Shown here piece after piece: positions 9,024 through 41,373 of a DNA stretch of 64,000 bases. Position numbers and translations under genes: made by a program. Every line of letters begins with the position of its first letter. Position 1 is the stretch's first letter. This DNA is from Deltaproteobacteria bacterium (lineage in GTDB: Bacteria; Myxococcota_A; Polyangia; JAAYKL01): assembly GCA_016936575.1 (NCBI GenBank), contig JAFGXQ010000045.1, positions 70,664-134,663 on the forward strand. Direction: 5' to 3'. Under the pieces are notes generated by a model. That model saw only the letters and a program-made list of their open reading frames with translations. It searched no databases and was not told where the DNA came from.

Positions 9024-9038
9024 GCACACAGCATCCGG

Positions 9039-15478: not shown

Positions 15479-15511
15479 GATGCTACTTGCTATACAGAAC
15501 CCGGCTATGTT

Positions 15512-16108
15512 CTATGACGGGTCTTTGCATTGTTCAAGAATGTCTGACTTCAAACCGGGGCAACAGGTATTCGGACCGAAGTAGGAACGCCAGATTAAAT
15601 CAGCGAAGCCTTTGCCCTTGGTGATTTGTCCCATTCGCGCGCCGTTCTGCTTCAGAAGTGTTCCCTGACCGGGAATGTAAATAATCTCCACATAACTGCC
15701 CTTATTTAAATCCTTGGTGAAATACGACAAGAATACGTTAATTTTTTTCTGCAGCTCAGTGGTGTCTTTACCCTGCGGTAAATTTTTCGTGAACGTGTCT
15801 TTCAAGTTGTCAATCAACCGCTTTTTGGGAATGGTTCGCTTCATTGACAGGATCAACGCCTTTACCTCTGACTTGTAGATCACCGACCGCATGCTGCACT
15901 CGCCGCTCTCAGAGTAGGCGCTGAGGCTGTAAATATCCACGAATAGAAATTCGCGGATCGCCGTACCCAGCAATTTGAGAGATTTTCCGGCGACGGCTTT
16001 ATTTTTCGATACTGCTCCCACCGCTGGAGACGGCGGAAACACAGTAACCATAACCAACACTGCCAGCGCGACAATGTACCCTTTTCTTGTGCACCATATT
16101 GCTTTCAT
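15512..16108 (-). CDS. Chalcone-isomerase-like fold protein (bacterial CHI-like/fatty-acid-binding type), secreted
   Basis: Signal peptide. LKLLGTAIREFLFVDIYSLSAY resembles the conserved core of bacterial chalcone-isomerase-like (Chalcone_3) proteins. Start placed at the internal MKAIWC. Confidence 0.35.
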   Translation of the reverse strand: MKAIWCTRKGYIVALAVLVMVTVFPPSPAVGAVSKNKAVAGKSLKLLGTAIREFLFVDIYSLSAYSESGECSMRSVIYKSEVKALILSMKRTIPKKRLIDNLKDTFTKNLPQGKDTTELQKKINVFLSYFTKDLNKGSYVEIIYIPGQGTLLKQNGARMGQITKGKGFADLIWRSYFGPNTCCPGLKSDILEQCKDPS

Positions 16109-16141
16109 GCGGGTTCCTTTATCGTTCAGCAAATCCGCGAC

Positions 16142-17308
16142 CTAATCTTCGCAGATTTTCAGTTGAGAAATAAACCACGGCGCGGGGATAGAACAGTCAC
16201 CGCACATCAATGCCACAATCCAAATCCCTTCGTCGGTAATACCGGTGAACGCGTTGCCGTTGTCATCTGTTAATTCAGAAAGGGTCGCATAGGTACCCGC
16301 ATCGATGGTTTTTCGCCAGATTTCATCTGCCATGTTTTCGAGATTCAGAAAATCGGATTCCAGTGCCGAAATCGTCGTATCGGTGTAGTGTGCAACCATA
16401 ATCCCGGCAATCATCGTGGGTGCGAACTCGCGCCCCATCGCGTTGTTCGTCATGCTGCCGGTCCAATCCAAATACACATCGGCGGTGCCGGGCGGCAAAA
16501 TAATCGGCTCCAGGGAACTGAGATCAGCTTCATAATCCAGTTGCACCGAATCATTGTGAATGGTTACCGTTGAATTGTTCGCATCTTCGCGCACATTGAA
16601 CAACGCGAGCATACGCGCATTTTGACCGAGAATGATGCCCGAAGAAAGCATCACCGAATACGAAAAATCTTCAGGTGGAACATTGACAGGATCCAGCAGA
16701 CTCAGCATGGAGGCTTCATCGAGCGCGGATCCCCCGGGAGAAACCAAATCCAGATAATTGAATGTCGTTGTGCTCTGTTCAGTAAAATACACAGCCGGCG
16801 GATTCGCCAAATCCTGCATTGTCCAATCATCACTATTCAACTTTTCAACCAACTCCTCTTCGTTTGCGGACCAAATGGTCACCAGTGCCATCTGTATATC
16901 GCCCTCGCCATCAAGCGGCTGCCCCAGCATGTCCTGAGTCAGATCATCCCATTGGAACGTAATATCGGTGGAGGGAGTTACCGACGTGGCTTCAATTGTC
17001 ATTTCATTGGTGAACGTGTAATTCTGTGCATCCACCAGTGCATACGACACCACGCCATCTGTGACAGGCACAACATCGCACGAAGGTGGCGGTTCGTCTG
17101 CGTCTGTATCGCTGTCGCTGTCACTGTCTCCGTCGCTATCGACATCCGAGTCGCTGTCAGTATCACCGTCACCATCGGTATCTGTATCGCTGTCACTGTC
17201 ACCATCTGTGCCGCTCTGCTCAGTGTCTGAATTACCGCCGCACGACAACATCGCACCAACGCAGAATATCAACACAAAAACAAACAACCATATTACTGTT
17301 TTCGACAT
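16142..17308 (-). CDS. Lipoprotein with a (D-S/T-D-G)n linker (hypothetical)
   Basis: Lipobox AMLSCGGNSD, then [41 protein letters not shown], then a 300-aa domain. Confidence 0.5.
   Translation of the reverse strand: MSKTVIWLFVFVLIFCVGAMLSCGGNSDTEQSGTDGDSDSDTDTDGDGDTDSDSDVDSDGDSDSDSDTDADEPPPSCDVVPVTDGVVSYALVDAQNYTFTNEMTIEATSVTPSTDITFQWDDLTQDMLGQPLDGEGDIQMALVTIWSANEEELVEKLNSDDWTMQDLANPPAVYFTEQSTTTFNYLDLVSPGGSALDEASMLSLLDPVNVPPEDFSYSVMLSSGIILGQNARMLALFNVREDANNSTVTIHNDSVQLDYEADLSSLEPIILPPGTADVYLDWTGSMTNNAMGREFAPTMIAGIMVAHYTDTTISALESDFLNLENMADEIWRKTIDAGTYATLSELTDDNGNAFTGITDEGIWIVALMCGDCSIPAPWFISQLKICED
17095..17215. repeat. In-frame tandem repeat encoding a (D-S/T-D-G)n linker (minus-strand gene)
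   Basis: Periodic gtcgctgtc / gtatcgctgtcactgtc units inside 16142..17308. Confidence 0.65.
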
Positions 17309-17347
17309 TTTCGTCTCCTTTATCGAAGCGCGCAGAGCGCTGCTTGA

Positions 17348-18766
17348 CTACTGCTCCAGATCCACTGGATGGCCATATAATGTAGGCCGCCAAACCACAT
17401 ATCCGAACGCGGCTTGGCCCAAATCAATTGAACGCACAAGCTGTTCGTCAGCAGCCACCTCGTGCATCAATGCTTTATTACTATACGAAACAAGTGTGTT
17501 GCCATTCGGCAAACGCTGCACATCCCCCAAGGTAGGCGTTCCGAGACCTTCCACACGATACCGCCATATCTCCCGCAACCCGCCGGTATCGCTTGAAAAC
17601 TCGTATTCCAGTGCCTCACTGGTCAGTGTCACATCTGAAAATGAACCACCATTATTGAAAATGAGAATACTGTTGTTGAGCAAATGGTGACCATGCTGAT
17701 ATTTCCACAACCCGTCATTCTGCGTCACCCACGCAACGTCTCCACTTTTATCGAATGCGACAATTTCGCCGTGCTCGTAGTCAGATACCGTAAATAACTG
17801 TTCGGCCATGGAGTAGCGTAACGCATTGCCGTGACACCCGGTTCCCCACGTATCGGCGGTATCGTATATCAAACCGATGTTGCCGTTGGTATCCAACGAC
17901 ATCACACGCGCGCAAACCGCTGAGTTTCCAAATCCGCCTTCCGGAGTGTATTCCAACCAGGCGAACGTGTTGTCATCTACAGGGGTCAAGTCATGCGCGG
18001 CACCCGTCAGCGACGTGAACTGTTTTACTTCCTGGCCATCCATTGACACCAGTTCCACAGCACCGGCGTTTCCCTGATTATTACTCGATACTACCGCCAT
18101 CCATTTGCCGTCGTAGCTCATTCGAGCCCTGGTGCTGTCGCTAAGCGCTGTTGCAGCGTACCACCAAACGATATCGCCGTCGTTGTCTATAATGAATGCC
18201 ATAGGGTTCTGCGAAAAAGAGGCCGCAGTATACGACGCCAAAACGAAAAATCCGGGGGCGACCGACGCTGATTGCGCTACAATGATATCGGCTCGCTGAA
18301 TCACGTTCGTTACCGGTTCAGTCGTGATCACCACATCATGACTGCGATACGTTGTTCCATCAATTACCGCATTCACGCGAACATGGTAGTCAGAAGACCC
18401 CTTCATACCCAGAAGCAATGTTCTGAAATATTCCGCGGTTAACTCCACTGGTGCGGTCATTCCATACTCGCTATCCAACCCGAAGTCGATGGTCGCCGCA
18501 TCGATTTCGTTATCAACATTCGTTGACCATTCCACAATGCCCACTGTTCCGATGGCGTCACTGAGGTTCACAGACACCTCAAACGTGATGTCTCTATCTC
18601 CCGCATCAGTATTGGCATCCGTATTGTCAACTTCAGTTCCGCGGTCGCTATCGTCGGAATCGTCCGAGCGCATACCATCGCCGGCAGCTCTTTCACTGGA
18701 GCAGCTCATCCAGAATACTGCTCCACAAAGTATCGCTAGAAATGTTATGGTTATAGACGCGCGCAT
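17348..18766 (-). CDS. Arylsulfotransferase (ASST)-like beta-propeller lipoprotein with an N-terminal Ig/FN3-like domain
   Basis: Lipobox WMSCSSE and an acidic linker. Propeller region with QHGHHLLNNSILIFNNG and RLPNGNTLVSYS motifs (HH...NGN pattern of the ASST/Arylsulfotran_2 type). Paralog of the adjacent gene. Confidence 0.45.
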   Translation of the reverse strand: MRASITITFLAILCGAVFWMSCSSERAAGDGMRSDDSDDSDRGTEVDNTDANTDAGDRDITFEVSVNLSDAIGTVGIVEWSTNVDNEIDAATIDFGLDSEYGMTAPVELTAEYFRTLLLGMKGSSDYHVRVNAVIDGTTYRSHDVVITTEPVTNVIQRADIIVAQSASVAPGFFVLASYTAASFSQNPMAFIIDNDGDIVWWYAATALSDSTRARMSYDGKWMAVVSSNNQGNAGAVELVSMDGQEVKQFTSLTGAAHDLTPVDDNTFAWLEYTPEGGFGNSAVCARVMSLDTNGNIGLIYDTADTWGTGCHGNALRYSMAEQLFTVSDYEHGEIVAFDKSGDVAWVTQNDGLWKYQHGHHLLNNSILIFNNGGSFSDVTLTSEALEYEFSSDTGGLREIWRYRVEGLGTPTLGDVQRLPNGNTLVSYSNKALMHEVAADEQLVRSIDLGQAAFGYVVWRPTLYGHPVDLEQ

Positions 18767-18787
18767 TTAAAATTCGTTTTGCCTCTA

Positions 18788-20560
18788 CTACATGATAACG
18801 TCAGTCGGAGGCCCGTACAGGGTTGGACGCCACACCACATACCCGAACGCGGTCTGCCCGAAGTTGTATTCCCGCACCATCGTTTGAGAGGAATCCACCT
18901 CATGAATAATGGCCTGGTTGCTATAGGCAACAATTGTGTTGTTATTCGGCAATCGCTGAATATCACCCAGGGTGGGAGTTCCCATATTCGGTACACTGTA
19001 ACTCCATACAAGGCTCATATTTCCTCCGCCACTCATGCTGAACTCCATGCCAACACTGGTCAGATTCACATCGGTAAAAGTACCGGCATTATTGAAGATC
19101 AATAGATTGCCGTTATTCAGCAGCTGGTGCCCGTGCTGCGGTCCCCATGAACCATCATTTTGCGTCAGCCACGAGACATTACCGTTTTTGTCAAATGCAA
19201 CAATCTGATGATGTTCATAGTCGGATACGGTAAATAACCCTTCCGCCTCTGAATACCGCAAGGAATTGCCGTGACAGTTGGCCCCCCAGGTATTTGCGGT
19301 GTCATAAATCAAACTGGTGTTGCCGTTTACATCCAGCGACATCACTCTTGCACATGCGGTCGACATAATGCCGCCGGTGCTTGGTACGTACTCCAGATAT
19401 GCAAAATTGTTGTCGTCAGTCACTGTCAAATCATGCGCGGCGCCTGTCAGAGAGGTAAACTGTTTTACCTCCAACCCGTCCATCGAAATCAGTTCCACCG
19501 ACCCTGCGGTTCCATTGTTGTTGCTCGAAACTACCGCCATCCATTTGCCATCGTAGCTCATACGCGCACGAGTGCTGTCTGCCAGTGATGTGGCGGTGTG
19601 CCACCATACAATGTCGCCGTCCGTATCGGCAATAAATGCCATCGGATTCTGCATCCATGAATTTGCCGAATATGATGCGAGGACCATGAATCCTTCACCG
19701 GGTGTGGTCCCGGCATGACTATCGGTAACCGTTGCGGCCTGTATGGCATTGGTCACCGGCCCGGTCGTGACGTTGTAATCTGGGCTGGTATATGTATTAC
19801 CGTCAATCTCAATTACCACGCGCAAATGGTAGGTGCGTGAGCCTTTCATTCCGAGAAGCAGGGTTCTGAAATCTTGTGCGTGCAAGTCTACCGGCGCTTC
19901 CATTCCGTATGCGGTATCCAGACCGAATTCGATATAGGCGCTGTCGATTTGGTCATCGACATTCGTCGACCATGTGACAATCCCAACGGTGCCGATGGCG
20001 CTGCTGGTAGATGGGTTCACCGTAAATGTAACATCCGTGTCGCTGTCACTGTCAGCATCACTGTCGCTATCTGTATCGCTGTCGCTGTCGGCATCACTGT
20101 CAGTATCACTGTCACTGTCGGTATCGCTGTCGCTGTCAGTATCGCTGTCGGTATCACTGTCACTGTCGGTATCGCTGTCACTATCACTATCGCTATCGGT
20201 ATCGCTGTCGCTGTCGCTATCAGTATCACTATCGCTATCGGTATCACTATCGCTATCGGTATCACTATCGCTATCGGTATCACTATCGCTATCGGTATCA
20301 CTATCGCTATCGCCATCGCTATCAGAATCTCCGTCGCTGTCGGCATCGCCATCGCCATCGCCGTCGGAGTCACTGTCGCTATCGCCGTCAGAGTCGCCAT
20401 CACCGTCAGAATCACTATCCCCATCCGAATCACCATCCGAATCACCATCCGAATCACCATCCACATATACCACGTTACCTTCATCTGTCGTACAGCCCGC
20501 CAGTTGGATTGCCGCCAGTACCGCGCTGAGCCAAAGCACAACGAAAATTGAATATTTCAT
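18788..20560 (-). CDS. ASST-like beta-propeller lipoprotein with a very long (~150 aa) poly(D-S/G/T) linker
   Basis: Lipobox QLAGCTTDE, then [13 protein letters not shown]...[13 protein letters not shown] (~150 aa), then FN3-like and propeller parts with [19 protein letters not shown] and [12 protein letters not shown]. About 60% identical to 17348..18766 over the propeller. Confidence 0.45.
20030..20460. repeat. ~430-nt in-frame tandem repeat array encoding ~150 aa of (D-S/G/T)n, including 5 perfect tandem copies of an 18-nt unit at 20223..20312
   Basis: Unit gtatcactatcgctatcg is repeated five times without mismatch. Degenerate 6/12/18-nt units flank it. Inside 18788..20560. Confidence 0.8.
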
Positions 20561-20653
20561 TCGTCTATTCCTTTCTACGTTCCTCCAAGCCTTCCAGATT
20601 TCGGTTGGAGAAATGCGATAGTTTCTTATTAATTGTATGACACGTTTTCGAAT

Positions 20654-21484
20654 TCAGGGACGCTCCAGATATTCAGTTGTAAAATATAAATCTTTTGTAT
20701 TGGGTATATTTTCTATCTTTTCGATTTTAAAAATTGATTTTCTGCCGTTTTGTTTGTTCGTCATTTCCATATACTTTGATCGATATCTTTTTTTCAACTC
20801 GTCAAGGCATTCAATATTTTTGCTTTTCAGCTCTTTCAGCAGCTCCCCTTCCAAATCAAAATACAGCGCTTTTCGAATGGTATATTCTTCTTTCGCGATC
20901 CAGATTTTCTTTTTTGAATACCCTTCGTCCTCAGCAACGTCTTCATTTTTAGGTTTAACTTCAATCAGCCAACACGAAACACCATCCACCGCTTCTTCCT
21001 TCAGTGTTCTAAACGTGTAGTCTGTCAGCGTCGGTGTGTTCATATCGGCGTATGAAAACTCGCTTCCCATAAATGCCTTGGAACGTTCTGATGTGACAAT
21101 CCGCCGGGTTTTTCTGAGTGCAGGCAGATAAATCCACATATCATCCCCTTTATTTTCATAATCGAACGCAAGCACACCTGTTCCTTTGACGTCCGCCGGC
21201 GATAAGAACCGATATACCCGTTTTTCAGTCTTACCGTTGTCGAATAGTTTGGTAACCATCGCTATCTTGCGCTCTCGCTTTTCGCCTTTTCCGTTCTGAA
21301 TAATCAGCTTCATCACCGCCTCAGAACCATCCAGTTTGCGCGACAATGCAGCGTTTTCCATAATTTCTTTTGCCGTGAGCGTCGCCCCTGCATCTGCATT
21401 CATACCAGCGGAAATCACCAATCCAACAATAACCCCCAACACAAGCATGTTCGAAAACAAATATCGTCCTACTCTCATATCCAT
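20654..21484 (-). CDS. Outer-membrane lipoprotein-sorting (LolA-like, DUF1329-type) protein
   Basis: 276 aa with a signal peptide. It sits immediately downstream of an MMPL/RND exporter, as is typical for LolA-fold partners of MMPL-family exporters. Family assignment is by context and overall composition. Confidence 0.45.
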   Translation of the reverse strand: MDMRVGRYLFSNMLVLGVIVGLVISAGMNADAGATLTAKEIMENAALSRKLDGSEAVMKLIIQNGKGEKRERKIAMVTKLFDNGKTEKRVYRFLSPADVKGTGVLAFDYENKGDDMWIYLPALRKTRRIVTSERSKAFMGSEFSYADMNTPTLTDYTFRTLKEEAVDGVSCWLIEVKPKNEDVAEDEGYSKKKIWIAKEEYTIRKALYFDLEGELLKELKSKNIECLDELKKRYRSKYMEMTNKQNGRKSIFKIEKIENIPNTKDLYFTTEYLERP

Positions 21485-21519
21485 TCTCCTTTTTATAAAA
21501 GCACTTTAAAACAAGTGGT

Positions 21520-23841
21520 CTACGCCGCGCCGGGTAATTCCTCGGTCGAATTTCCACTCTCTGTAGGCTCCAGAAATTTTGGTTTAAATACAATCACCAC
21601 TGCCGGCAGCACCACCAGCGCACCGATAAGACACGAGACAATAGAAACCACCACCAGTAACCCGAAAAACTGTACAGGAAAAAACTGCGACAGAAGCAAC
21701 ACCACAAACCCAACCACCACCGAAAAACCATTGAACAGGATTCCCCGTCCCGCCGAACGCAATGTTATTTTCACCGCATCCATCGGTTCCGCCAGCCTGC
21801 GTTCCTCGCGATAACGCCACAGAAAATGAATGGTGTAATCAATGCCAACACCAATCATAATCGATGAAAGCATCGCGGTAATCAAATTCAATTCAATGCC
21901 CCAATACCCCATCAACCCGAACAATATTGAAACAGCAATTCCCAAAGGAATCATCGAAATCAGCCCCGCAACAACCGATCGCATTACAGCGCCTACCAAC
22001 ACACCACACAGGAGAATAGACAAAAACAAACTCAACAACTGCCCCCGTACGATGTAATCCACCATGTTGGTAATCACATCCAATAAACCGCCCACAATCG
22101 TGAACGGTGCCTGAGGATGGGCATCAATGTACGCCTGTGTGTAATGGACCACATCGGTTGCCGCCCGGGTTCCACTGTCTCGTACCTGCGCAAGGATTTG
22201 CGCATTGCGATAATTGAAGTCTACGAGTTTATTGAAATCCTCAATATCGCCGCTAAGCGAGTACAGCAGAAAGTACTGCGCAATCAAATCTCGTTTGTCC
22301 GGAACTTTATCCGCAGATGCGGCGTTGTCGTTCATTACTCTGTTCATTCCGCGCACCATTGCGGCGATTGATGATGTGGTACCCACCAGTGGATGCTTTT
22401 TCAGATGCCTTTCCAGTTTATCGATTTCCTTCATCACCGCAGGGTCTTTGATGTCGCCCTTGGCAACGATCGACACATTCGCCCACCCTCCGAAATGTTC
22501 ATTCAACATATGGGTGGCGCGCCAAACCGGATCGTTTTTTTTGTAAAAACTCATCGGATTGCTGTCTACAACAATAAATGCCGCACCTGTTGCAAATGCC
22601 ACGAGCAGAACCCCGCTGATGATTAAAATTCCTCTGGATTTTTTTGACGCGACATCCCCTATGAAATTCAACAAGCGACTCATCAATGTCGCCACATCCT
22701 GAATCTTTTTTTCTTTTTTCTTCTTCGATTTCGATTTCGGCAATACTGCCAATACCGCGGGAATAAACACCAAGCTGCCCACCATTGCAAAGGCAACACC
22801 GGCAGCAGCCAGAATTCCCAGCTGCTCTGCCGGAATGATGATATGCGAGAGCAGACAAAGAAGCCCCACCATCGTGGTGATTCCGCTTGCCAGAATGGGT
22901 TGATTTAAATGCTGAACAGTCGCATGGGCAAGCTGCTTCGAATCGAGTTCCTTGTTTTCAGCACGTTCTTCCTGATATCTCGCCATAATGTGAATTCCGT
23001 AATCATTTGCCACAGCAAGAAGGATTACGGGAAGCAACACGGTGACAGTATGAATTTTCCATCCGAGGAACGCGAGCAGACCAAGCGCAAACACGATTGC
23101 CATCACTGTCATAATAAACGGCATCAACACGCCGCGTGCTTCCCGGAAACATAACAGCAAGAAAATAAACATCAGCACCAAACCGACCGGAAGAAAACGA
23201 GACATGTCCTTTCGAATATCTTTCGAAAGCTTCACGCGGGTAACCGGCATCCCACCAATTAACGCATCTCCGGGCCCTTTCGTCTGTTTAATCAGTTGCT
23301 CCAGCTGACCAACCACTTTTTCATCTGAAGCGTCCGTCGCCAGAAAACCGATAAGCACCGTGTGTTTGAAATCCTTCGATACGATGTTCCCGTACACCAA
23401 CTCATTTTCTTTTAAATCATGACGTAGCGTTTCCTTCTGCTTCTCGCTTTTCGGTATACGGCGAATCGCCTGTTCCACCACCAGCTCTCCGCATTCGGCA
23501 CTGATATGTTTGGCGGTGAAAAGAGTGATTACCCGATCGAACTCTTTGATATGTTCAAACTTTTTCGACATTTCCTTCAACCGGTGAATCACGTCGATAT
23601 CGAGAATATCATCGGCAGAAAGCACAATCATGATCATATCGGTTCCACCGAACAGCTTTTCAATTTGGGTCAGATTTTTTCGAGTGGGCAAATCCACAGG
23701 CAGTTGATTCTTCATCTCCGTATCCAACTCAATGTGCCGAAGTTGAAAAGCAGCGGCAACCGTAACTGCAACAAAAATAACGATAATCGGCCAGGGGTGT
23801 GAGGTGACAAAATTTGCAAAACTGTTCTTCCGCTGTTTCAT
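21520..23841 (-). CDS. MMPL/RND-superfamily exporter (two 6-TM bundles, two periplasmic loops)
   Basis: 773 aa. N-terminal TM helix, a large periplasmic domain, a TM block (GLVLMFIFLLLCF...), a second periplasmic domain, then a second TM block ending in VVLPAVVIVFKP. Layout is typical of HpnN/MmpL-like exporters. Confidence 0.65.
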   Translation of the reverse strand: MKQRKNSFANFVTSHPWPIIVIFVAVTVAAAFQLRHIELDTEMKNQLPVDLPTRKNLTQIEKLFGGTDMIMIVLSADDILDIDVIHRLKEMSKKFEHIKEFDRVITLFTAKHISAECGELVVEQAIRRIPKSEKQKETLRHDLKENELVYGNIVSKDFKHTVLIGFLATDASDEKVVGQLEQLIKQTKGPGDALIGGMPVTRVKLSKDIRKDMSRFLPVGLVLMFIFLLLCFREARGVLMPFIMTVMAIVFALGLLAFLGWKIHTVTVLLPVILLAVANDYGIHIMARYQEERAENKELDSKQLAHATVQHLNQPILASGITTMVGLLCLLSHIIIPAEQLGILAAAGVAFAMVGSLVFIPAVLAVLPKSKSKKKKEKKIQDVATLMSRLLNFIGDVASKKSRGILIISGVLLVAFATGAAFIVVDSNPMSFYKKNDPVWRATHMLNEHFGGWANVSIVAKGDIKDPAVMKEIDKLERHLKKHPLVGTTSSIAAMVRGMNRVMNDNAASADKVPDKRDLIAQYFLLYSLSGDIEDFNKLVDFNYRNAQILAQVRDSGTRAATDVVHYTQAYIDAHPQAPFTIVGGLLDVITNMVDYIVRGQLLSLFLSILLCGVLVGAVMRSVVAGLISMIPLGIAVSILFGLMGYWGIELNLITAMLSSIMIGVGIDYTIHFLWRYREERRLAEPMDAVKITLRSAGRGILFNGFSVVVGFVVLLLSQFFPVQFFGLLVVVSIVSCLIGALVVLPAVVIVFKPKFLEPTESGNSTEELPGAA

Positions 23842-23854
23842 TTTATTCTCTTCC

Positions 23855-25402: not shown

Positions 25403-25403
25403 G

Positions 25404-26873
25404 TCAGAACCTGTACGATAATGCGAGCGATGAAAAGTGATAACTGCTCACATATACTCCGCTATTCGCTGTGGCTGAGGGCTGTTCAGGATAGTGGGCA
25501 TCGCAATTGTTGTTATCGGTATACGGCGCCTCACAAAAGCTTCCCGGAACTTGTTGATAAATCTGTCCGTTACTTTCGCTCATTGAAAATGGAATTTCAT
25601 ATACATAGGTGTATGACAGGGACACATCAAATCTTCCCAATATCAATGTTGTGCCCGCGCTCGCACCGAGTCGATGGGTGGCGGGAAAATCCACATAGGC
25701 AAAATTCTTTCTACTCGCTGCTGTTTCATAGAATGTACCTGCACGTATAATAAGACGATTGTCTATCACGTTCATGTCACCCCCAAACCGCACACTGAAC
25801 GTGTTTTTCCAGTGTTTCGGTATGACAATCTCTCCGACTTCAACACTGACCCCCATGACATCAGCGTACAGTCCCTTGCCGTCGATGATGTATTCATCCA
25901 TCTGGGACCAGAACTCATAGCGAACATCAAGTTCCAAGTCGTACAGATCTCTCTTTCCGCGCAAATGAATGTATCTCGCACCTGCCCGCAGCTCCATCGG
26001 AAGGGTCATTGCAAACGTCACGTTGTTATCAGGATTGTCGTTTCTGCTGAGCTCCGGCGCTTCTTCAAGAGAAAGAAACACTGGTGTGAGCGAAAGCTCG
26101 CTGTCCGCGTGTAGATAAGTAGGAATCAGCCGTCCGGAAAACGCCAGTTGAAAAGAAGGCATTGGATGCACCCAGAATCCGAGAATTGCCGAAATCCCGG
26201 TATGGTCTGCGCCTTTCACAGTAGCCGCCATATCAAACAGGCTGGAAACCGGGCTGACCTGCCCGGGAGTCGTATCTCCGTTCACAATTAATTGCAATTC
26301 CAACTGTGCCAAATCCACCCACTGCAGACTGACCCCCACACCGAACACATCCTTGTACCGCCATGCCGCACTGAGGCTGTAATACAGAATTTTTGTATCC
26401 CGCCGTGTCAACATATAGCGCTGACCACCGTCTTGCGAAAATTCCTGCGTGGAAATACCGGCCGGTGCGTAGGTTCCCAACGCAAACGCCCAGCTCTGAA
26501 GGCCGAAATCCGTCGATACGACAATCATCGGCCCGAGCAACTGCCAAGTGTGCTCGTTATTCACAGTGTCAAATGTTACGTAGTCGGGAATACCCTCGCC
26601 GGCCTCGCTCCAGTCCAGTAAAGGCGCACGCCTGAATTGTTCATGCGCGTAACCGAACCGATTACTCAGATATAGTTGCGTGCCGTGTAGAGATGTCAAT
26701 CCCGCGGGGTTATATTCAATGGCGGTGGCATCATCAGCTTTAGCAACAAAGGCACCACCTCGACCAGCGGCCACCGCGCCCTGATCTCCCACCGATATTC
26801 CAGCAGACAACACATCATTCGAAAACATGACGATGATTCCCCCCAACGCGCATAGAACAATAAAAAAAGCCAT
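25404..26873 (-). CDS. FadL/OmpP1/TodX-family outer-membrane hydrophobic-compound channel
   Basis: Signal peptide (MAFFIVLCALGG...), N-terminal ...ADDATAIEYNPAGLT (NPA-type hatch motif of FadL), and a long beta-rich body ending ...LSYRF. Start moved to the internal Met to remove overlap with the upstream gene. Confidence 0.5.
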   Translation of the reverse strand: MAFFIVLCALGGIIVMFSNDVLSAGISVGDQGAVAAGRGGAFVAKADDATAIEYNPAGLTSLHGTQLYLSNRFGYAHEQFRRAPLLDWSEAGEGIPDYVTFDTVNNEHTWQLLGPMIVVSTDFGLQSWAFALGTYAPAGISTQEFSQDGGQRYMLTRRDTKILYYSLSAAWRYKDVFGVGVSLQWVDLAQLELQLIVNGDTTPGQVSPVSSLFDMAATVKGADHTGISAILGFWVHPMPSFQLAFSGRLIPTYLHADSELSLTPVFLSLEEAPELSRNDNPDNNVTFAMTLPMELRAGARYIHLRGKRDLYDLELDVRYEFWSQMDEYIIDGKGLYADVMGVSVEVGEIVIPKHWKNTFSVRFGGDMNVIDNRLIIRAGTFYETAASRKNFAYVDFPATHRLGASAGTTLILGRFDVSLSYTYVYEIPFSMSESNGQIYQQVPGSFCEAPYTDNNNCDAHYPEQPSATANSGVYVSSYHFSSLALSYRF

Positions 26874-26922
26874 CTGAAACTGTCGATGCGGCCGATAGAA
26901 CACAGTCACCCCTTTGCCTCTC

Positions 26923-27918
26923 CTATACCCCTGTACAATCCGCTGACATGGTGTTTCTGAACAACGAAGTAACATCTTCAGCTTCAAAGAAAGCCGATAG
27001 TCGATAACCGATTCGCCCATCCGCTGTCACACAGCTGGGTACGATTTCAGCTGCATCCATAATTCCGCGAAAGGTCGCCCAGTTTCCATTTTGCCCACAG
27101 GCGCTGGCGCAATAGCCCGAAATCGCTTCCACTGAAAACGATTCAAACGGATCTTCCGGCGGTGTCGGAAAACCGGTTTCCGGTAAAGCGCCGTCTTTAC
27201 TGCACAATCCGGCCTTGATACACATACAAATTTGATTGACCGACTCCTGCGGCAGGCACCCTTCAAGATGCCCCGACGAAATCTGACTACAGTTTTCATT
27301 AAAACCGAACGTAACATGCAGATCATGAATCGGCGTGCTGTTCGCGGGAGACAACAACGGCGCACACATCAGAGGATCAGTCTGCGGCCCCAAATGAAAA
27401 TATAACGTCTGTGCCTCGGTGTTTCTGAATCTGCACTGATAACCGTTTGACGGAATGACATCAACGCCGATATTCAACGATTCATCCATAAAACAATACG
27501 ACTCAATCGTCGAAAAATCATCGTTTGAATATCCGGTAGAAGGCGTGCGCCAGGCCGGGCCCACACTCAATTGCAGCCTGGAGAAGGCCGCGAGTTCGTC
27601 GTCATCGGCTTCTGCAATGTCAACCACGAACAGCACATTCAGCAGGTAATTCGAAATCTCGTATTCCCACATGCTGTCGAGTGTCACGTTCAGCCTGGCC
27701 GGTTGGTCAACGGTTAAACGGGTAAATCGATAGGCCCGGCCTGTCACGTCCTCGGGCGTGCAGTTGCACTGAGTATTCTCCCCTGTCGCATCGCCTTGGA
27801 TAAAGACATCCGGAGCCGGCGGCTCAATAATGTCCACACAAGCAACAACGGTCATCATCGCAACGGCCAATGTAGTTGTCAGCCTATACGCCTGCGACGT
27901 TCTCACCGCTCTCTTCAT
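26923..27918 (-). CDS. Hypothetical secreted lipoprotein (Cys-containing)
   Basis: Internal start MKRAVRTSQAYRLTTTLAVAMMTVVAC (signal plus lipobox). No recognisable domain. Confidence 0.35.
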   Translation of the reverse strand: MKRAVRTSQAYRLTTTLAVAMMTVVACVDIIEPPAPDVFIQGDATGENTQCNCTPEDVTGRAYRFTRLTVDQPARLNVTLDSMWEYEISNYLLNVLFVVDIAEADDDELAAFSRLQLSVGPAWRTPSTGYSNDDFSTIESYCFMDESLNIGVDVIPSNGYQCRFRNTEAQTLYFHLGPQTDPLMCAPLLSPANSTPIHDLHVTFGFNENCSQISSGHLEGCLPQESVNQICMCIKAGLCSKDGALPETGFPTPPEDPFESFSVEAISGYCASACGQNGNWATFRGIMDAAEIVPSCVTADGRIGYRLSAFFEAEDVTSLFRNTMSADCTGV

Positions 27919-27955
27919 GTGAAATACATGCTTACAGATTCGCACAAGGGTCATC

Positions 27956-28756
27956 CTATTCTGCGCACTCCGCACTTGCTGCTACGACTTCTGTCAACTG
28001 AAGACCTGAAACGACCTGACCAGTTACATTACTTGCGGTAAGATGCATGCAGAACAACTCGCCGTCATGTTCGCATTCTTCACATGCAAATCCCATCGTC
28101 GGCGCAGTGTTGCAAATCTTTTCAGGCGTGGGGTCTGTAAACATGATTGTAAACAGTTCGTAAATATCTCTGAAATCAACTGTGGCTTTGAGGGTACCAT
28201 CGATAAATGCATCTCCTCCGTTCACCAGAGACCCTGAAATACTCAAATCATGAATGGTTGCTACTTCGAAGGCACCATTTCCTTCAATAACGGTTTCCAG
28301 ATTTGTCGGACCAATCAGAAAATCGGGATTGTCCGCAATCGTGCCGCTGCACGAGGCCGTGGCACTACACATATCCTGCACACCGTCATTCATCGTTCCC
28401 ATCGAAGTCGTCAGCGCGGATTGAGCGATTTCTACAACGGTAAAGGCAAATATCGGAACATATCCGCCCAACTCCGCCCCCACACCGGACGGTGTCCAGT
28501 TTGCAGCCGGAATTTCATCCAGGGCATAGGTATTCGCCAAAATAACACTAACGTCTTCCAGGGGCGTTGCATCTAAAGTTTCGCTGGGGGTATCTGATTC
28601 CGAATCCACATCGGTTCCGCTGTCAGATGCAGTGTCACTATCGTTCGTGTCGATATTATCAGAATCATCGGCCTCATCCCCGGTTTTGTCGCCACAACTC
28701 AGCAGTAGCAGACAAAACAACCCTACCAATCCGGACAATTTCAATTGCGTTTCCAT
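27956..28756 (-). CDS. Lipoprotein with an acidic D/S/T linker (hypothetical)
   Basis: LLLLSCGDKTGDEADDSDNIDTNDSDTASDSGTDVDSESDTPSE, then a 200-aa domain with six Cys. Confidence 0.5.
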   Translation of the reverse strand: METQLKLSGLVGLFCLLLLSCGDKTGDEADDSDNIDTNDSDTASDSGTDVDSESDTPSETLDATPLEDVSVILANTYALDEIPAANWTPSGVGAELGGYVPIFAFTVVEIAQSALTTSMGTMNDGVQDMCSATASCSGTIADNPDFLIGPTNLETVIEGNGAFEVATIHDLSISGSLVNGGDAFIDGTLKATVDFRDIYELFTIMFTDPTPEKICNTAPTMGFACEECEHDGELFCMHLTASNVTGQVVSGLQLTEVVAASAECAE

Positions 28757-28789
28757 GTTACTTTTTCCTCCATTTGTTCTTCGCCGGTT

Positions 28790-29812
28790 CTATACCCAGA
28801 TGCCTGCCACTGTGGCCATTGTGAACCCCGACGCGGCACTTCCCAGCATGAGTTTTTCATCCTTTTGCGGTTCTCTTTGAGAAAGCAGATAATCAAACAC
28901 CACACCAATCGTGGCGCTGGCGTTATTTCCGTACAAGTGATGCGTGTATACTCCCCTATCCAATTCTGCACCGATTTTCGACAGAACCTTCCGCGTCATG
29001 AATTCGCTGGGTTGATGAAATAAGTAATGCGCAACCTCGTTGGGATCCCATCCCAATTTCTTCAACACCTCCATCAGACGAGGTGCAATATACTTATGAA
29101 GTTTCATCAGTTCCGTCGATGATGAACTGAATGTGCCGTGAATCGGCACCTGGCAGAGAGACCAGTGGTTAGGCAGAGAATGCGTGTCGGTACTGACAAC
29201 CCGAACACATCCGTTTGACCAGGGATTTTTGCTCACCAGAAAACAAGCTGCTGCGTTTCCGATGGTCAAACCGGCGGCTTTGTACTGCAAATCGGTAAGT
29301 GTTTGAATATCGAACGACAAAAACTCCCGCGAGAGTTCAGCTGTACAAACCAACGCAGTCTCGTAGTCATCGTGCATATTCAGGTACGCACAGGCGACCT
29401 GCACAGCTTCCAAATGTCCCACGCACGCACTGGTTACGTCAAAAGCATGCGTCTGTGTGATGCCAAGATTCGCACACACTTCCATTGCCGTAGCAGGCTC
29501 AAAGTACTCTCTTGCCACCCCACCGAAAATCACCAAATCCACATCGTCCAAAGCAGTGCTGTTTCTCTCGAGGCAGTTAGCAGCTGCCTTTGCCGCATAC
29601 GCCGCGACCCTTGACTCAGGATTGAAATCCAGGTAGCGCACCTGAGTATTACATTTGCTCAAAATCTTTTTGGTTGCCGCTTCAATGGCTGTCCACGCAA
29701 GCTTATTTCCCTTGTAGTTTTGTTTGACCAAATCGATAATCGCAGCATTGTCATATCGTGTATCAGGTACATGAATTCCCGGCTTAGATAAATATAGTTC
29801 TGGCATCGTCAT
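28790..29812 (-). CDS. 3-oxoacyl-ACP synthase III (FabH/KAS III)-like condensing enzyme
   Basis: Thiolase-fold length and layout. Active-site Cys context DVTSACVGHLEA, His in VAHYLFHQPS, Asn in YGNNASATIG (Cys-His-Asn triad order of KAS III). Start placed at MTMPELY. Confidence 0.55.
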   Translation of the reverse strand: MTMPELYLSKPGIHVPDTRYDNAAIIDLVKQNYKGNKLAWTAIEAATKKILSKCNTQVRYLDFNPESRVAAYAAKAAANCLERNSTALDDVDLVIFGGVAREYFEPATAMEVCANLGITQTHAFDVTSACVGHLEAVQVACAYLNMHDDYETALVCTAELSREFLSFDIQTLTDLQYKAAGLTIGNAAACFLVSKNPWSNGCVRVVSTDTHSLPNHWSLCQVPIHGTFSSSSTELMKLHKYIAPRLMEVLKKLGWDPNEVAHYLFHQPSEFMTRKVLSKIGAELDRGVYTHHLYGNNASATIGVVFDYLLSQREPQKDEKLMLGSAASGFTMATVAGIWV

Positions 29813-30023
29813 TGAATTGTTCCTGTATGTGTTTCCAGAAATCGTCCATGCAAGACAGCTCAGCATGTAAAGCCGTCTTAATCGAAGATTTAAACAATGG
29901 TGCGAACGAAGCGAGGAAAGGGGTTGATATAAATGAACCTTTTTTACTTATTCTTTTTACAGAGGAAAATGATTGCAGCTTATTTGAAAAATTTCGTTCA
30001 TCTCAAATCATTTCAACATTCTG

Positions 30024-31103
30024 TCACAAAAAAGTCTGATAAAATTCGGCGTAGTCACATCGAATCTGCTCTTCTGTTAAGCCAAACTTTTCCAGATTGT
30101 ATGCATGTTTGCTTTCGAATGCGCGTTGTTTCTGAGCGGTGTTATCAATCACCGTTCGCAATTCAGCAGATATTTCTCCACCTACAAACGGAATGATTTC
30201 GTCCATCAGTCCGTCGAAATCCTTCATCAAACGATCAAACGTCACAACCTTGACATTGGAACGATTAATTCTTCCGCTTTCCCAATCCCGCTGAAAACGC
30301 AAACTGAGTTCGAGTAACGCGGCATACAGCCGCTTGATAAAATGCGTTCGTTTTTCCTCGGGTAAACTCCAGAACCCGAATGCGCCGTCCAAAACGCCGG
30401 TAACCAGACTGAGACCGGACGGCACAGTCGAGAGCGGATCTCTTGCCATGTATAAAATTTTCGCATCCGGAAACCGATTCAAGAAGGAAGGCAGACGAAT
30501 GCCAAGTGAAAACAGCTTCCCTACAATGCGTTCTTTCTTTTCACTCACCAACACGCGGCGCCAACATTTCTCAATCCATTTAAAGTCGCGTTTGGCCGTA
30601 TCCCGCAGGTCCGGATCAAACATATCTCTCAAGTCCTTTTTCGACCAAGATAAGAAGAATCCGTAAATGAAAAAGCCGTCAAAGTAGCGAAACATCAGCG
30701 CCGGATCATCGGTTTCCACAGATGTCAGATTCGTCTTGTGCGCAGCATGGGCGTGATGTTTTGCAGGACTGAACTTCTCCATAATCGGAAGAAACGGCTT
30801 CAGCAAAGTCTGCAGCGTTAAAGAGGGATAGATCATCTTCCACAGTCTGGAACCCGTCCCGAACCCGTTATCAGTTAAAAACCGCTGCAGGAACGTTGTT
30901 CCGCTTCGAGGATTTCCCACTATCACAATCGGACTCGCAACTCGTTTTTTACGAAGCGACGGAAAAAACAAATGGTCGAGCACCATAAATACCGATACTG
31001 TCGCATGCAGCAGAAAAATGCCTGAAAATATAAAAACAGGAGAGATTACCTTACGAAATGCGCGTATCAATGCTTTGTGCACCAGAAACATTCTTGAAAT
31101 CAT
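30024..31103 (-). CDS. PAPS-dependent sulfotransferase family protein (with N-terminal hydrophobic segment)
   Basis: 5'-PSB motif IVIVGNPRSGTTFL (cf. PKSGTT) and a 3'-PB-like region (ILYMARDPLSTVPS). N-terminal TM-like stretch. Confidence 0.55.
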   Translation of the reverse strand: MISRMFLVHKALIRAFRKVISPVFIFSGIFLLHATVSVFMVLDHLFFPSLRKKRVASPIVIVGNPRSGTTFLQRFLTDNGFGTGSRLWKMIYPSLTLQTLLKPFLPIMEKFSPAKHHAHAAHKTNLTSVETDDPALMFRYFDGFFIYGFFLSWSKKDLRDMFDPDLRDTAKRDFKWIEKCWRRVLVSEKKERIVGKLFSLGIRLPSFLNRFPDAKILYMARDPLSTVPSGLSLVTGVLDGAFGFWSLPEEKRTHFIKRLYAALLELSLRFQRDWESGRINRSNVKVVTFDRLMKDFDGLMDEIIPFVGGEISAELRTVIDNTAQKQRAFESKHAYNLEKFGLTEEQIRCDYAEFYQTFL

Positions 31104-31515
31104 TGTTCGGTTTTTCCTTTTTTAGTTCATCCAACAGAAACAAAATTATCACATCTCTTTAGTGCACTGTTCCGCCGCAACAGGGTTGGCTTTTATTTTG
31201 TAAAATCCGAAAAATATCTTCAGAAGGAGAATATTCGCGTCACCCTCGGTGCGATAGATTCGCAATTCTCGATACAGCGCCTTATTCGACGAACCTGACT
31301 TCATAAAAAAAATAAACACCGTTACCAATTCAGGTTACTCGTCTTGATTCGAATCTATGAGGGCCTGTGCCGAAATGCTGTAGTCGTGTGGGACTAAACT
31401 CGCGTCATTCGCAGGAAGCGCTGCAGCCGACTTGCGTAAAATCAGCGATGACAAAACTCAGGATAGCGAAGAACGTTAAAACCCGAGCTATGGAGACTTG
31501 ATTTCGACGGGCGTT

Positions 31516-33165
31516 CTAAGGTGCCAGAGTGAGTTGGCCTTCATCGAGTGAAATCTGGTAGTAGCCGTGGTCGTCCCAGGCCAGTTTCTGACCATTTTGA
31601 GTAAGTGTTCCGCCATCCACGGTAACACGCAGACATTTTCCGGACGGAAAATTATCGGGCAGGTTCCACGACCAACTATGGCCGTCACCGCTGCTCGACG
31701 GACTCACAGACGAAAATGTTTTTTGTCCAATCCAATATGCCCCCACATTCACCACGCTGTCTATCCATACATCTCCGTATGATTTCATTTCGTTGACACC
31801 CGATACCATAGAACTGATTGGAATCGCGTTATACGCACCGTCTCCATATCCAGTGAACCCGTGCACGCAGTAAACTGCCCATCCGCCTTGATTACGCGCG
31901 TTGTTTGCCGGCACGCCGAACGTATACGCGTCCGCCCCCGCCGCTGGAATATATGACGGCAGATTAAAGGGATTTGAGTTGTCATTCGGCATAATAATAG
32001 CGCCGGCCACACCGCGGTTGATGATATACCGCGTACTTGCGGGAGAAGAACAAACCGTGCTCCCCTCTGGCGCCGCCATCGTATAGATTTCGATGTCCAG
32101 CGCGCTCTCCAGCAACTGCTCCGCGGTGTCAATCGACGAAGTATTACATGTGTGATCAGTGGTGTGATTTCCGATTTCGTGCCCACCGGCAACCGCATCG
32201 TGCCAAATCGATGCATTCTCGTCGTTCCAATTGGTCACAAGGTAGAATGTGTAGTGAACCCCCAGGCCTGAGAGCGTCCCCCATTCCTGAATGGTTGATT
32301 GGGTTCCATCATCGAGAGAATAGCTCACCGCCGCAGAATATCCCGCCCAATTCAACACCTGCAAATTGCCGGCCGCTCCAGAGGGCTTCGCCTGTCCACT
32401 GCTTCCCACATCCGGAAGTCCGCAATCATACACAACCCCCGGGTCTGAATCTGAATCGGAATCAGCATCGGAATCGGCGTCTGTATCGCTATCGCTGTCT
32501 GTATCGCTATCGCTGTCTGTATCGCTATCGCTGTCTGTGTCAGTGTCACTGTCAGTATCGGTATCGCCGTCTGTTGTACCGCCGGCATTGCAGCAAATGG
32601 CGGCCCAACCGTTTTCCGGACTGGGCACACATGGCGTTGCGCCGACAATTTCGCCTCCCAAACCGCCCCAGGTCGGATCACCGGTACACGCCCATTCGCT
32701 CGATACACATTCATACGCGCAGTCAGCATCTGAGTCGGTATCGCCATCGGAATCCGTGTCACTATCTGAATCCGTGTCACTATCCGAATCCGAATCGGCG
32801 TCGGAGTCGGTATCAGTGTCTGTATCTGCATCACTATCTGAATCCGTGTCACTATCCGAGTCTGTATCAGTGTCTGAATCCGTATCGCTGTCCGAGTCGC
32901 TGTCAGCGTCTGAATCTGTATCGCTGTCGGAATCCGTATCGCTATCCGAGTCGCTGTCAGCGTCTGAATCTCCGTCACCATCGGCATCGGCATCACTGTC
33001 TGAATCAGAGTCACCGTCGGAATCCCCGTCGGAATCCCCGTCTCCGTCGGAATCACTGTCGGAGTCCGCATCCGCGTCAGTCAAATCGACCGAAGCATCC
33101 TCTTGTCCGCATGCCATCAAAAACAATTGCGCCCCGAAAATAATAATATACAAATACTTGCTCAT
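31516..33165 (-). CDS. Lipoprotein with two poly(D-S/T/G) tracts and a polysaccharide deacetylase (CE4/NodB-like) domain
   Basis: Lipobox [10 protein letters not shown]. About 120-aa and about 45-aa acidic repeat tracts. CE4 motifs SYSLDDGT (TFDDG-like) and [11 protein letters not shown] (H-x-x-x-x-H metal site). Confidence 0.5.
32442..32574. repeat. In-frame tandem repeat (second acidic tract of the CE4 lipoprotein), including 3 perfect copies of an 18-nt unit at 32481..32534
   Basis: Unit ctgtatcgctatcgctgt is repeated three times exactly. Confidence 0.75.
32712..33075. repeat. ~360-nt in-frame tandem repeat encoding ~120 aa of (D-S/A/G/T)n (first acidic tract of the CE4 lipoprotein)
   Basis: Periodic gtcagcgtctgaatc / gtatcgctgtccgagtc units. 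Confidence 0.7.
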
Positions 33166-33490
33166 ATCGCTCCGTATCCCCATTCAGATTCAAAGGATTA
33201 GTCCGTTCAAAACATACTTTTCGTGCCAACCCATAGGCAACCATCCAAACAGTACCGCCACCATCTACAACGGCTCAAAGGGATTGCGCGCACGCACAAA
33301 ATGACCAGATTTGGACATTGAAGAGAAAAACTGTACACAACACGAAGGCGTGAATTCTCACATTTAAAAGAAGTGAAACTGAGGCCCAACGACAACAGTT
33401 CTGATTTCATTGACCCATGAATACTGACGTTATTATTTGGCATGAAAGTTGAGTAGAAACATCCAAAACTCAAACGCAGGAGCATTTCCT

Positions 33491-34414: not shown

Positions 34415-34422
34415 ATGCGGAA

Positions 34423-34959
34423 TCAGCGTCTCTTTCGACCGAGGGTGATGATCAGCACTTCGCCGCTTTCGTCCACTTCCACCTTTTCAATGCGGGAAGC
34501 CGCGTAACGCTCCTTGCGTTTGGAGTCGTCAAGCGTGTATACGACCAGACCGTTAATGCGCTTTGCCACCAGCCGACTCACCAGATCTTTCATCTGACCT
34601 AAATCGGAAAGCTTTACTTTCCCCGTGTCGACATCCACGATGTAGATTTCATCCACATAAAACCGCTTTTTCTCAGGGTCGTATGCGATAACCCCGCGCA
34701 CATCGACCTTTCCTTTCACTTTGCGATTTAAAAACGAGGCGCGAAACTTAAGTCGTATCCCAACCTCACTACCTTCAAAATATACTTTCGGTTTGTAGAA
34801 TTTGGCTTTGGCCACTACGACACTTTTTTCAACCGGAAATTTTTTTTCCACCTTCTGCTGTACTTTGGCCAGCGGCACCTCAACATGGTGAACACAACCG
34901 CTCGCGACAAGCACCAGCAGCACCCCGATAATTTTAATACAGTGCTTCAATTCAGTCAT
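34423..34959 (-). CDS. Small lipoprotein (possible DUF1439/YceB-like)
   Basis: Signal plus lipobox LVASGC. 178 aa, Lys-rich. Family guess only. Confidence 0.3.
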   Translation of the reverse strand: MTELKHCIKIIGVLLVLVASGCVHHVEVPLAKVQQKVEKKFPVEKSVVVAKAKFYKPKVYFEGSEVGIRLKFRASFLNRKVKGKVDVRGVIAYDPEKKRFYVDEIYIVDVDTGKVKLSDLGQMKDLVSRLVAKRINGLVVYTLDDSKRKERYAASRIEKVEVDESGEVLIITLGRKRR

Positions 34960-41369: not shown

Positions 41370-41373
41370 CGGC

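Follow-up and report, generated by a model that had tools for sequence, protein, structure and literature searches.

3′-Phosphoadenosine 5′-phosphosulfate (PAPS) is restricted to the cytoplasm. To our knowledge, no mechanism is known for the bacterial sulfation of periplasmic or cell-surface molecules, nor is the natural donor of the periplasmic arylsulfate sulfotransferases (ASSTs). The antibiotic caprazamycin is said to undergo a two-step sulfation, reportedly described by Tang et al. in 2013. Here, we compare this and other described systems with a gene array at 15512-33183 of a 64,000-nucleotide stretch of DNA from a metagenome-assembled genome (MAG) of a Deltaproteobacteria bacterium (contig JAFGXQ010000045.1, positions 70,664 to 134,663; the whole stretch is called the window in the following). 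The array encodes, among others, a membrane-anchored PAPS-dependent sulfotransferase (ST), a head-to-head type ketosynthase (KS), two lipoprotein ASSTs and a set of envelope proteins for lipid transport. In our judgement there is an even chance that the genes from 31103 down to 15512 form an envelope-spanning two-step sulfuryl relay, a version of the two-step sulfation of caprazamycin.

In the sulfation of caprazamycin and A-90289, the type III polyketide synthase (PKS) Cpz6 makes pyrones, to which Cpz8 adds sulfate from PAPS; Cpz4 then uses the sulfated pyrones as donors (PMC4924298, PMC6731281, PMC13426309). A 2026 review describes the physiological roles and natural substrates of periplasmic ASSTs as poorly understood (PMC13426309). 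Cassettes of the AmeABCD type, built around an HAE3 RND pump, combine this pump with a DUF1302 outer-membrane protein, a DUF1329/LolA-like protein and a COG4447 propeller (PMC6394551, bioRxiv 10.1101/072470). Among ketosynthases, the glutamate numbered Glu117 in OleA and Glu105 in PpyS is the base that defines head-to-head condensation (PMC4578411), and MxnB and CorB are head-to-head ketosynthases that form pyrone rings (PMC5724707, PMC5506619). The first-pass annotation of the window had not recognised the array as a described pathway. This agrees with the full-text literature that was searched, in which the cluster itself is not described; for its logic, however, there is a precedent in Cpz6, Cpz8 and Cpz4.

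The array and the caprazamycin pathway share three roles, namely a condensing enzyme, a PAPS-dependent sulfotransferase and a PAPS-independent enzyme of the ASST type. The window ASSTs are homologous to Cpz4 and have the equivalent of the catalytic His436 (numbering of Escherichia coli AssT) in both copies, and the KS enzymes linked to ST genes belong to head-to-head or pyrone-forming groups. In contrast to the caprazamycin pathway, the array has ASSTs that are exported lipoproteins and a dedicated trans-envelope lipid transport set, it lacks antibiotic genes, and the hosts of the cluster are diderm environmental phyla and not Streptomyces. As we read it, the cluster follows the working principle of the Cpz relay without belonging to it: its parts are analogous, and the ASST alone is homologous. 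By analogy, it is plausible that the KS stands in for the pyrone-making type III PKS, head-to-head KS enzymes including pyrone synthases.

The array and its proteins

A recheck of the open reading frames (ORFs) and their coordinates confirmed that 15512-33183 holds 13 ORFs, all on the minus strand, with a 412-nt spacer (31104-31515) between the first two genes, as first annotated. All domains assigned at that stage (Sulfotransfer_1/3, ACP_syn_III, ASST, MMPL, DUF1329, DUF1302, Toluene_X, Chalcone_3) were matched in a check against Pfam and NCBIfam. In the direction of transcription, and with the short names used below, the genes are as follows (E-values after family names).

31516-33183, minus strand: CE4, a CE4 deacetylase lipoprotein (Polysacc_deac_1, 8.4e-9)
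30024-31103, minus strand: ST, a membrane-anchored PAPS-dependent sulfotransferase, Stf1/Stf9-like (Sulfotransfer_3, 6.4e-14; also Sulfotransfer_1)
28790-29866, minus strand: KS, a head-to-head type ketosynthase with FabH fold, OleA/PpyS-like (ACP_syn_III_C, 1.4e-13; also ACP_syn_III, Thiolase_N and NCBIfam matches)
27956-28756, minus strand: lipoC, a lipoprotein with an acidic linker (lipobox; no Pfam family)
26923-27975, minus strand: lipoB, a Cys-rich lipoprotein (lipobox; no Pfam family)
25404-27020, minus strand: FadL, an outer-membrane channel of the FadL/TodX type (Toluene_X, 1.4e-17)
23855-25402, minus strand: DUF1302-like outer-membrane barrel (DUF1302, 2e-7, 30.9 bits against a cut-off of 23.2, with the model covered in part)
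21520-23841, minus strand: probable HAE3-type RND/MMPL inner-membrane transporter (MMPL, 1.9e-45)
20654-21484, minus strand: LolA-like, a LolA_like/DUF1329 periplasmic protein with lipid-carrier fold (LolA_like, 8.9e-55, 185.6 bits; DUF1329, 8e-10, 38.9 bits)
18788-20560, minus strand: ASST1, a lipoprotein with an ASST-type propeller and an acidic D/S/T/G linker of ~170 residues (Arylsulfotrans, 1.7e-9; Arylsulfotran_2, 7e-7)
17348-18766, minus strand: ASST2, a lipoprotein of the ASST type with beta-sandwich and six-bladed propeller (Arylsulfotrans, 1.4e-12; Arylsulfotran_2, 3e-7)
16142-17308, minus strand: lipoA, a lipoprotein with a C-terminal CxxC-x-PAP motif (lipobox; no Pfam or PDB match)
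15512-16132, minus strand: CHI-like, a secreted chalcone-isomerase-like protein with fatty-acid-binding fold (Chalcone_3, 1.4e-21; signal peptide)

The deposited gene calls use shorter versions of KS (start at 29812), lipoB (27918), FadL (26909), LolA-like (21334) and CE4 (33165); for KS, lipoB and FadL these are likely the actual starts. Promoter and terminator scans of the array performed no better than on shuffled sequence, and an Rfam scan of 15-34 kb, spacer included, returned no RNA element. Of the 13 proteins, only ST and KS are without export signals, and of these ST has an N-terminal hydrophobic anchor and KS has none. Six proteins carry lipoboxes (CE4, lipoC, lipoB, ASST1, ASST2, lipoA), and signal peptides are present in the FadL, DUF1302-like, LolA-like and CHI-like proteins. 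Neither Pfam nor NCBIfam has a family that matches lipoA, lipoB or lipoC.

In four of the lipoproteins (CE4, with two blocks, ASST1, lipoA and lipoC), the lipobox cysteine is followed by long, acidic low-complexity linkers rich in D-S, D-T or D-G. The corresponding DNA (17114-17203, 20033-20462 and 32467-33067) consists of imperfect tandem repeats of 6, 18 or 36 nt. The linkers may act as tethers that span the periplasm. They also attract matches to staphylococcal SD-repeat adhesins (NCBIfam MSCRAMM), which are compositional, and we have rejected this identity.

The two propellers are the part of the array that is most directly tied to the caprazamycin enzymes. A profile of ST-linked ASSTs, searched against the PDB, finds Cpz4 (9kf4, E 1.8e-39) ahead of E. 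coli AssT (E 7e-22), and these ASSTs are thus nearer to Cpz4. The AlphaFold2 (AF2) model of ASST2 (pLDDT 86.8) matches both domains of E. coli AssT in Foldseek (E 5e-16, TM ~0.6), and then Cpz4 (9kf4, E 1.9e-10). Like E. coli AssT (PDB 3elq), the window ASSTs have a two-domain fold, and both retain the equivalents of its His252, His356 and Asn358 and of its nucleophile His436. Of 120 window-type homologues, 97-100% retain these four residues, with the nucleophilic histidine in 120/120; for 136 ASSTs from ST loci, the corresponding figures are 88-94%. Judged by these profile and residue matches, the window ASSTs are true homologues of Cpz4. From E. coli AssT they differ in overall sequence (11-13% identity) and in being lipoproteins with acidic linkers; moreover, the array has no dsbL or dsbI, and it is lipoA that is the constant neighbour. 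As the ASSTs are lipoproteins in the window and carry type IX secretion system (T9SS) tails at another locus (L008; loci are numbered with the prefix L), they can be placed outside the cytoplasm.

All 16 homologues compared (58-74% identity, several phyla) share with ST an invariant P-loop (GNPRSGTT) and RDP motif, and the hydrophobic N-terminal segment of ST spans residues 18-47. Among solved structures, the mycobacterial 2z6v and 2zq5 come closest to ST, and no further mycobacterial sulfotransferase was among the structure matches at E <=0.1. The first-pass annotation had compared the array to the mycobacterial sulfolipid-1 locus (Stf0, Pks2, PapA1/2, MmpL8). This resemblance turned out to be superficial and is confined to the parts list (a PAPS-dependent ST, lipid-forming enzymes and an exporter of the MMPL family). 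The closest counterparts of the window ST are Stf9 and Stf1, the RND protein is by its best model of the HAE3 and not the HAE2 MmpL type, the Pfam search detected no PKS or PapA domain, and hence no Pks2 or PapA, in the array proteins, and the host, a diderm, has ASSTs and outer-membrane barrels. A locus like that for sulfolipid-1 can be dismissed because the ST type and, by its best model, the RND type do not fit and PKS and PapA are lacking.

The nearest solved structure to the window KS is OleA of Xanthomonas campestris (E 3.5e-15), and FabH ranks behind it. All 21 homologues aligned keep C148, H284, N314 and E123. The first three residues form the Cys-His-Asn triad, and E123 corresponds to OleA E117 and PpyS E105 (PMC4578411), since the alignment to 3row places it on the glutamate of the YLEP motif. 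The ST-adjacent KS enzymes of other phyla are of a different lineage, with MxnB (4v2p, E 1e-53) and CorB (4yuc, E 4.5e-52) as nearest structures. Unlike the loci of OleA, PpyS and MxnB/CorB, the array has neither oleBCD genes nor an assembly line of PKS or nonribosomal peptide synthetase type. No alpha/beta-hydrolase, AMP-ligase or short-chain dehydrogenase/reductase match, as expected for oleB, oleC and oleD partners, was present among the array proteins, and the OleABCD olefin pathway was dropped for lack of these genes. An aryl-polyene or flexirubin-type cluster was also rejected, as the DarB match is weak (E 4.7e-5) and the remaining aryl-polyene genes are absent.

For the RND protein, the best NCBIfam model is HAE3 (TIGR00921, E 3.9e-95, 319.4 bits, which is under the cut-off of 351.9 bits); the HpnN, BstA, MMPL/actII and MmpL3 models all score lower. 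With AmeABCD-type cassettes the array has in common the DUF1302-like barrel, the LolA-like/DUF1329 protein and the presence of periplasmic propellers, and its RND protein is a candidate for the HAE3 pump. However, its propellers are exclusively of the ASST type, with no COG4447/Ycf48/BNR-like protein, it has the FadL channel in addition, and it is linked to KS and ST genes and not to catabolic islands. Export of a sterol or hopanoid sulfate was considered and rejected, because HpnN and BstA match weakly and because phyla without known sterols or hopanoids commonly have members of the ST family.

Recurrence of the set in other genomes

The ST family is large (~2000 homologue clusters, with 55-80% identity among members) and occurs in Myxococcota, KSB1, Fibrobacterota, Ignavibacteria, Bacteroidota, Marinimicrobia, and Alpha- and Gammaproteobacteria. 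We retrieved 80 genomic loci that contain ST homologues and sorted the ORFs of these loci into families. ASST-type proteins are encoded near ST in 64/80 loci, a DUF1302-like barrel in 42/80, a FabH-like KS in 41/80, an MMPL protein in 17/80 and a LolA-like protein in 14/80. Genes of the PAPS pathway (cysC, cysD, cysN/C, sat-cysC, cysQ) lie near ST in 18/80 loci, so that in these other genomes PAPS-making and PAP-removing genes adjoin ST. In 42 of the 80 loci, at least 5 kb are available on either side of ST. Within this flank-complete subset, ASSTs occur in 34 loci (1-6 copies), a FabH-like KS in 24, both together in 22, transport genes in 22 and PAPS-pathway genes in 14. In 27 loci the KS gene lies less than 400 nt from ST on the same strand. 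The KSB1 locus L024 illustrates the arrangement, with ASST, ASST, FadL-like, ASST, KS, ST, two unknown genes, DUF1302, MMPL, LolA-like, sat-cysC and cysC. Overall, ST, a head-to-head ketosynthase, ASST-type propellers and the HAE3/LolA-like/DUF1302 set recur jointly in at least 8 groups at phylum or class level.

Some further proteins were noticed in these neighbourhoods. A secreted protein of ~199 residues without a Pfam match is encoded directly downstream of ST in L079 (10565-11158) and 41 further ST loci (42/80 in all), mostly from Marinimicrobia; perhaps it binds lipids and is the equivalent there of the CHI-like or LolA-like proteins. In Ketobacter-type gammaproteobacterial loci (L036:13121-15238; L044:12710-), a fusion of a fatty-acyl-AMP ligase with an acyl carrier protein adjoins KS, ST and ASST, which points to fatty-acid-derived substrates of the KS. 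A repeat-containing protein of ~505 residues, again without Pfam match, goes with ST-KS-ASST sets in KSB1 and Cytophagia (L024:11626-, L009:11572-, L011:15871-, L016:11207-12712), and in L024 and L009 a small tetratricopeptide repeat protein does so as well.

The window-type set itself recurs in several genomes. In the closest relatives, two Zodletone MAGs (L094 and L095), KS, lipoC, lipoB, FadL, DUF1302, MMPL, LolA and ASST follow each other in the same order as in the window; this operon begins after greA and recG, and the ST genes of these MAGs are on another contig (L074 and L007). A Polyangia MAG (L098) has a different order (ASST, ASST, lipoA, CHI, KS, lipoC, DUF1302, MMPL, LolA), also with ST elsewhere (L006). 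L003 combines lipoA, CHI, lipoC, FadL, DUF1302, MMPL, LolA and ST, and L097 comprises only KS, ASST and lipoA, with no transporter. The distant L096 has the full set (lipoC, ASST, lipoA, MMPL, FadL, KS, DUF1302, LolA) together with an ST that belongs to the same family (56% identity). On the 1.56-Mb contig of L096, the ST gene (14551-15565) and the FadL gene (7798-9130) are each split over two frames and may reflect assembly indels or pseudogenes. The interval between LolA and ST in this contig (13551-14531) encodes a weak match to a DHHA1-domain protein (E 3.9e-5, below the cut-off), which could be an NrnA-like phosphatase for 3′-phosphoadenosine 5′-phosphate.

The individual proteins are conserved to different degrees. 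The LolA-like gene adjoins the MMPL gene in L003, L024, L083, L094-L096 and L098; a metagenome scan with the LolA-like protein gave 7 loci, most of them short. FadL is kept in L003, L094, L095 and L096, the CHI-like protein in L003 (47% identity) and L098 (49%), and lipoC next to KS or transport genes in L003, L094, L095, L096 and L098. By comparison, lipoB is confined to the closest relatives L094 and L095. The lipoA gene adjoins an ASST in L096, L097, L098 and L004. Its homologues (L096:3163-4080 and 6603-7613, L097:11716-12858, L098:11470-12558) have an invariant C-terminal C-x-x-C-x-x-PAP motif. A PDB profile search with lipoA found nothing, and its single-sequence AF2 model has a pLDDT of 33. 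By analogy with dsbL and dsbI for E. coli AssT, lipoA may be a redox or partner protein.

These comparisons bear on the earlier proposal that all genes from 15512 to 33183 belong to one system. The families from ST to CHI indeed recur together in varied orders (L096, L098, L094, L095, L003, L024). CE4, on the contrary, never accompanies them: apart from copies from the same genome, no CE4 homologue was present in ~95 related loci. CE4 is adjacent to the system and no conserved member of it, and because it is absent from related loci, we take the functional unit to run from ST through CHI (31103-15512). For the same reason, we discarded the idea of CE4 and ASST as an N-deacetylase/N-sulfotransferase pair. 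Conservation of gene neighbourhoods supports the view that the genes from ST to CHI act as one functional system, which would be modular, with ST sometimes encoded elsewhere.

A proposed sulfuryl relay and its alternatives

From the domain identities, cellular locations, conserved catalytic residues and co-location in many phyla described above, we infer all chemical steps of the following model. In the cytoplasm, the OleA/PpyS-type KS would couple two acyl chains head to head, and its product would be a lipophilic carrier of the beta-keto, enol or 4-hydroxy-pyrone type. As the motifs of ST suggest, this membrane-anchored enzyme would then transfer sulfate from PAPS to the carrier on the cytoplasmic side of the inner membrane. 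Judging by their families, the putative HAE3 RND pump, the LolA-like carrier and the DUF1302 and FadL barrels would carry the sulfated lipid to the periplasm and the outer membrane. The same transport proteins may return the spent carrier, and FadL and the CHI-like protein may recycle it. The CHI-like protein and lipoA, lipoB and lipoC would be accessory lipid-binding or partner proteins. Finally, in keeping with their catalytic residues and their homology to Cpz4 and AssT, the lipoprotein ASSTs would accept the sulfuryl group on the catalytic histidine and hand it to an extracytoplasmic acceptor, in a compartment to which PAPS has no access.

Several observations weigh against this model. Two of the three enzymes differ in family from their caprazamycin counterparts. 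The window ST is a Sulfotransfer_3/Sulfotransfer_1 protein and Cpz8 belongs to Sulfotransfer_4 (the N-terminus of LipE/Cpz8 from the supplement of PMC6731281 matches PF17784 with E 3.8e-22 and aligns with the window ST at the P-loop only), and the window KS has the FabH/OleA fold, whereas Cpz6 is a type III PKS. Moreover, OleA, and not one of the known pyrone synthases, is the closer relative of the window KS, whose product may therefore have no hydroxyl group that could be sulfated. In both window ASSTs, the sulfate-binding Arg374 of AssT is replaced by tyrosine (SDY instead of SSR); this position is variable in the window subfamily, and the arginine is present in 72% of the ASSTs from ST loci. 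Intergenic gaps of 157-211 nt, in addition to the 412 nt at 31104-31515, permit separate transcription. In the closest relatives, ST is not linked to the KS-to-ASST operon and lies on other contigs (JAFGQN, JAFGWT, JBNLED), so the adjacency of ST and KS in the window is not universal, and the closest ST homologues (74-78% identity) can stand alone. No acceptor-related gene is conserved with the set among the related loci compared. Finally, every carrier of the cluster that was found is a MAG, and a look-up of the cluster gave no cultured host.

The alternative that survives best is one in which KS and ST make a sulfated lipid as an end product, such as an outer-membrane sulfolipid, a surfactant or a signal, which is then exported by the HAE3 pump, the LolA-like protein and the barrels; this had been the initial interpretation of the array. 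The ASSTs would remodel this lipid or serve as the propeller subunit of the transporter, much as AmeABCD-type HAE3 cassettes include a periplasmic propeller. The membrane anchor of ST, the presence of a lipid-condensing enzyme together with a complete lipid route, and the substitution of Arg374 in the window ASSTs are all consistent with the idea, as is L003, where ST comes directly after the transport genes and neither KS nor ASST is near. It does not, however, explain why ASSTs are conserved, catalytically intact and often present in multiple copies (up to 6), with the nucleophilic histidine in every one of the window-type homologues. These proteins are homologues of Cpz4 and not COG4447 propellers, they occur with ST at 14 loci whose vicinity lacks transport genes, and L097 retains KS, ASST and lipoA without a transporter. 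We consider a sulfated end product unlikely.

In a second alternative, the array consists of two independent modules that are adjacent by chance. The operon from KS to CHI would make and export a non-sulfated lipid (a dialkyl pyrone, resorcinol or ketone), the substrate of ST would be unrelated, and the ASSTs would sulfate the lipid or other phenols in the periplasm at the expense of environmental aryl sulfates. Known ASSTs do use phenolic sulfate donors (PMC13426309), in the nearest relatives the operon follows greA and recG and has KS as its first gene, the ST gene being located in another part of the genome, and the closest ST homologues (74-78% identity) are found in unrelated contexts. 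Against chance adjacency speaks that ST, KS and ASST are direct neighbours in many other phyla, that the full set is together in L096, and that PAPS genes cluster with ST and ASSTs, as in L024. Furthermore, 3/3 relatives that have the operon also encode an ST (L074, L007, L006). The two-module explanation seems to us rather improbable. A system of the AmeABCD plus FadL/TodX kind that takes up hydrophobic or aromatic compounds or confers tolerance to them, with periplasmic sulfation as detoxification, would suit FadL/TodX channels, which import hydrophobic molecules, and the link of DUF1302/DUF1329/HAE3 cassettes to monoterpene tolerance and to aromatic and fatty-acid catabolic islands, but it is very improbable given that the array has no catabolic genes, that its conserved partners are a biosynthetic KS and a PAPS-dependent ST, and that PAPS-synthesis genes are co-located in other loci.

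Other genes of the window, and what a relay would mean

A few other genes of the window deserve mention. The region 58196-63987 had been taken to supply the array with PAPS. It encodes a cysH-like PAPS/APS (adenosine 5′-phosphosulfate) reductase, an Fe-S flavoprotein, sulfite reductase, cysK and a methylase of the siroheme type. The genes at 58-64 kb represent the reductive branch of sulfate assimilation, without sat, cysC or cysDN, and this set would compete for PAPS or APS and not supply it. At 52395-54135, a membrane protein similar to steroid 5-alpha-reductases (Steroid_dh, E 2e-53) lies beside a protein similar to 3-beta-hydroxysteroid dehydrogenases/epimerases; in this myxobacterium-like MAG, the pair may modify a sterol or polyprenol. 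The region 40365-45694 codes for MeaB and for two subunits of methylmalonyl-CoA mutase, and nothing evident connects it with the cluster. Immediately upstream of the array, at 33449-36055, are two plus-strand genes, for an RCC1-repeat protein and a WYL/WCX/HTH regulator, and one minus-strand gene, for a DUF1439 protein; none of the three is conserved with the cluster.

Returning to the relay, the combination of an ST, a carrier-forming KS, a lipid export route and extracytoplasmic Cpz4-like ASSTs provides a testable model for sulfation outside the cytoplasm. That the cluster family as a whole is a general route by which diderms bring activated sulfate out of the cytoplasm, as a lipid pyrone or enol sulfate that is exported by HAE3, LolA-like and barrel proteins and used by ASSTs of the periplasm or the cell surface, is a tentative proposal that we rate somewhat short of an even chance. 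If true, it would identify the natural donor of the ASST family, and it would mean that the sulfation of surface or environmental molecules outside the cytoplasm is widespread in Marinimicrobia, KSB1, Ignavibacteria, Bacteroidota, Myxococcota and some Proteobacteria. A relay would also give a function to envelope proteins of the DUF type, namely the DUF1302, DUF1329/LolA_like and CHI-like proteins and lipoA, lipoB and lipoC. As the ST family is abundant in Marinimicrobia of the ocean and in sediment phyla, this chemistry could matter for marine organic-sulfur cycling.

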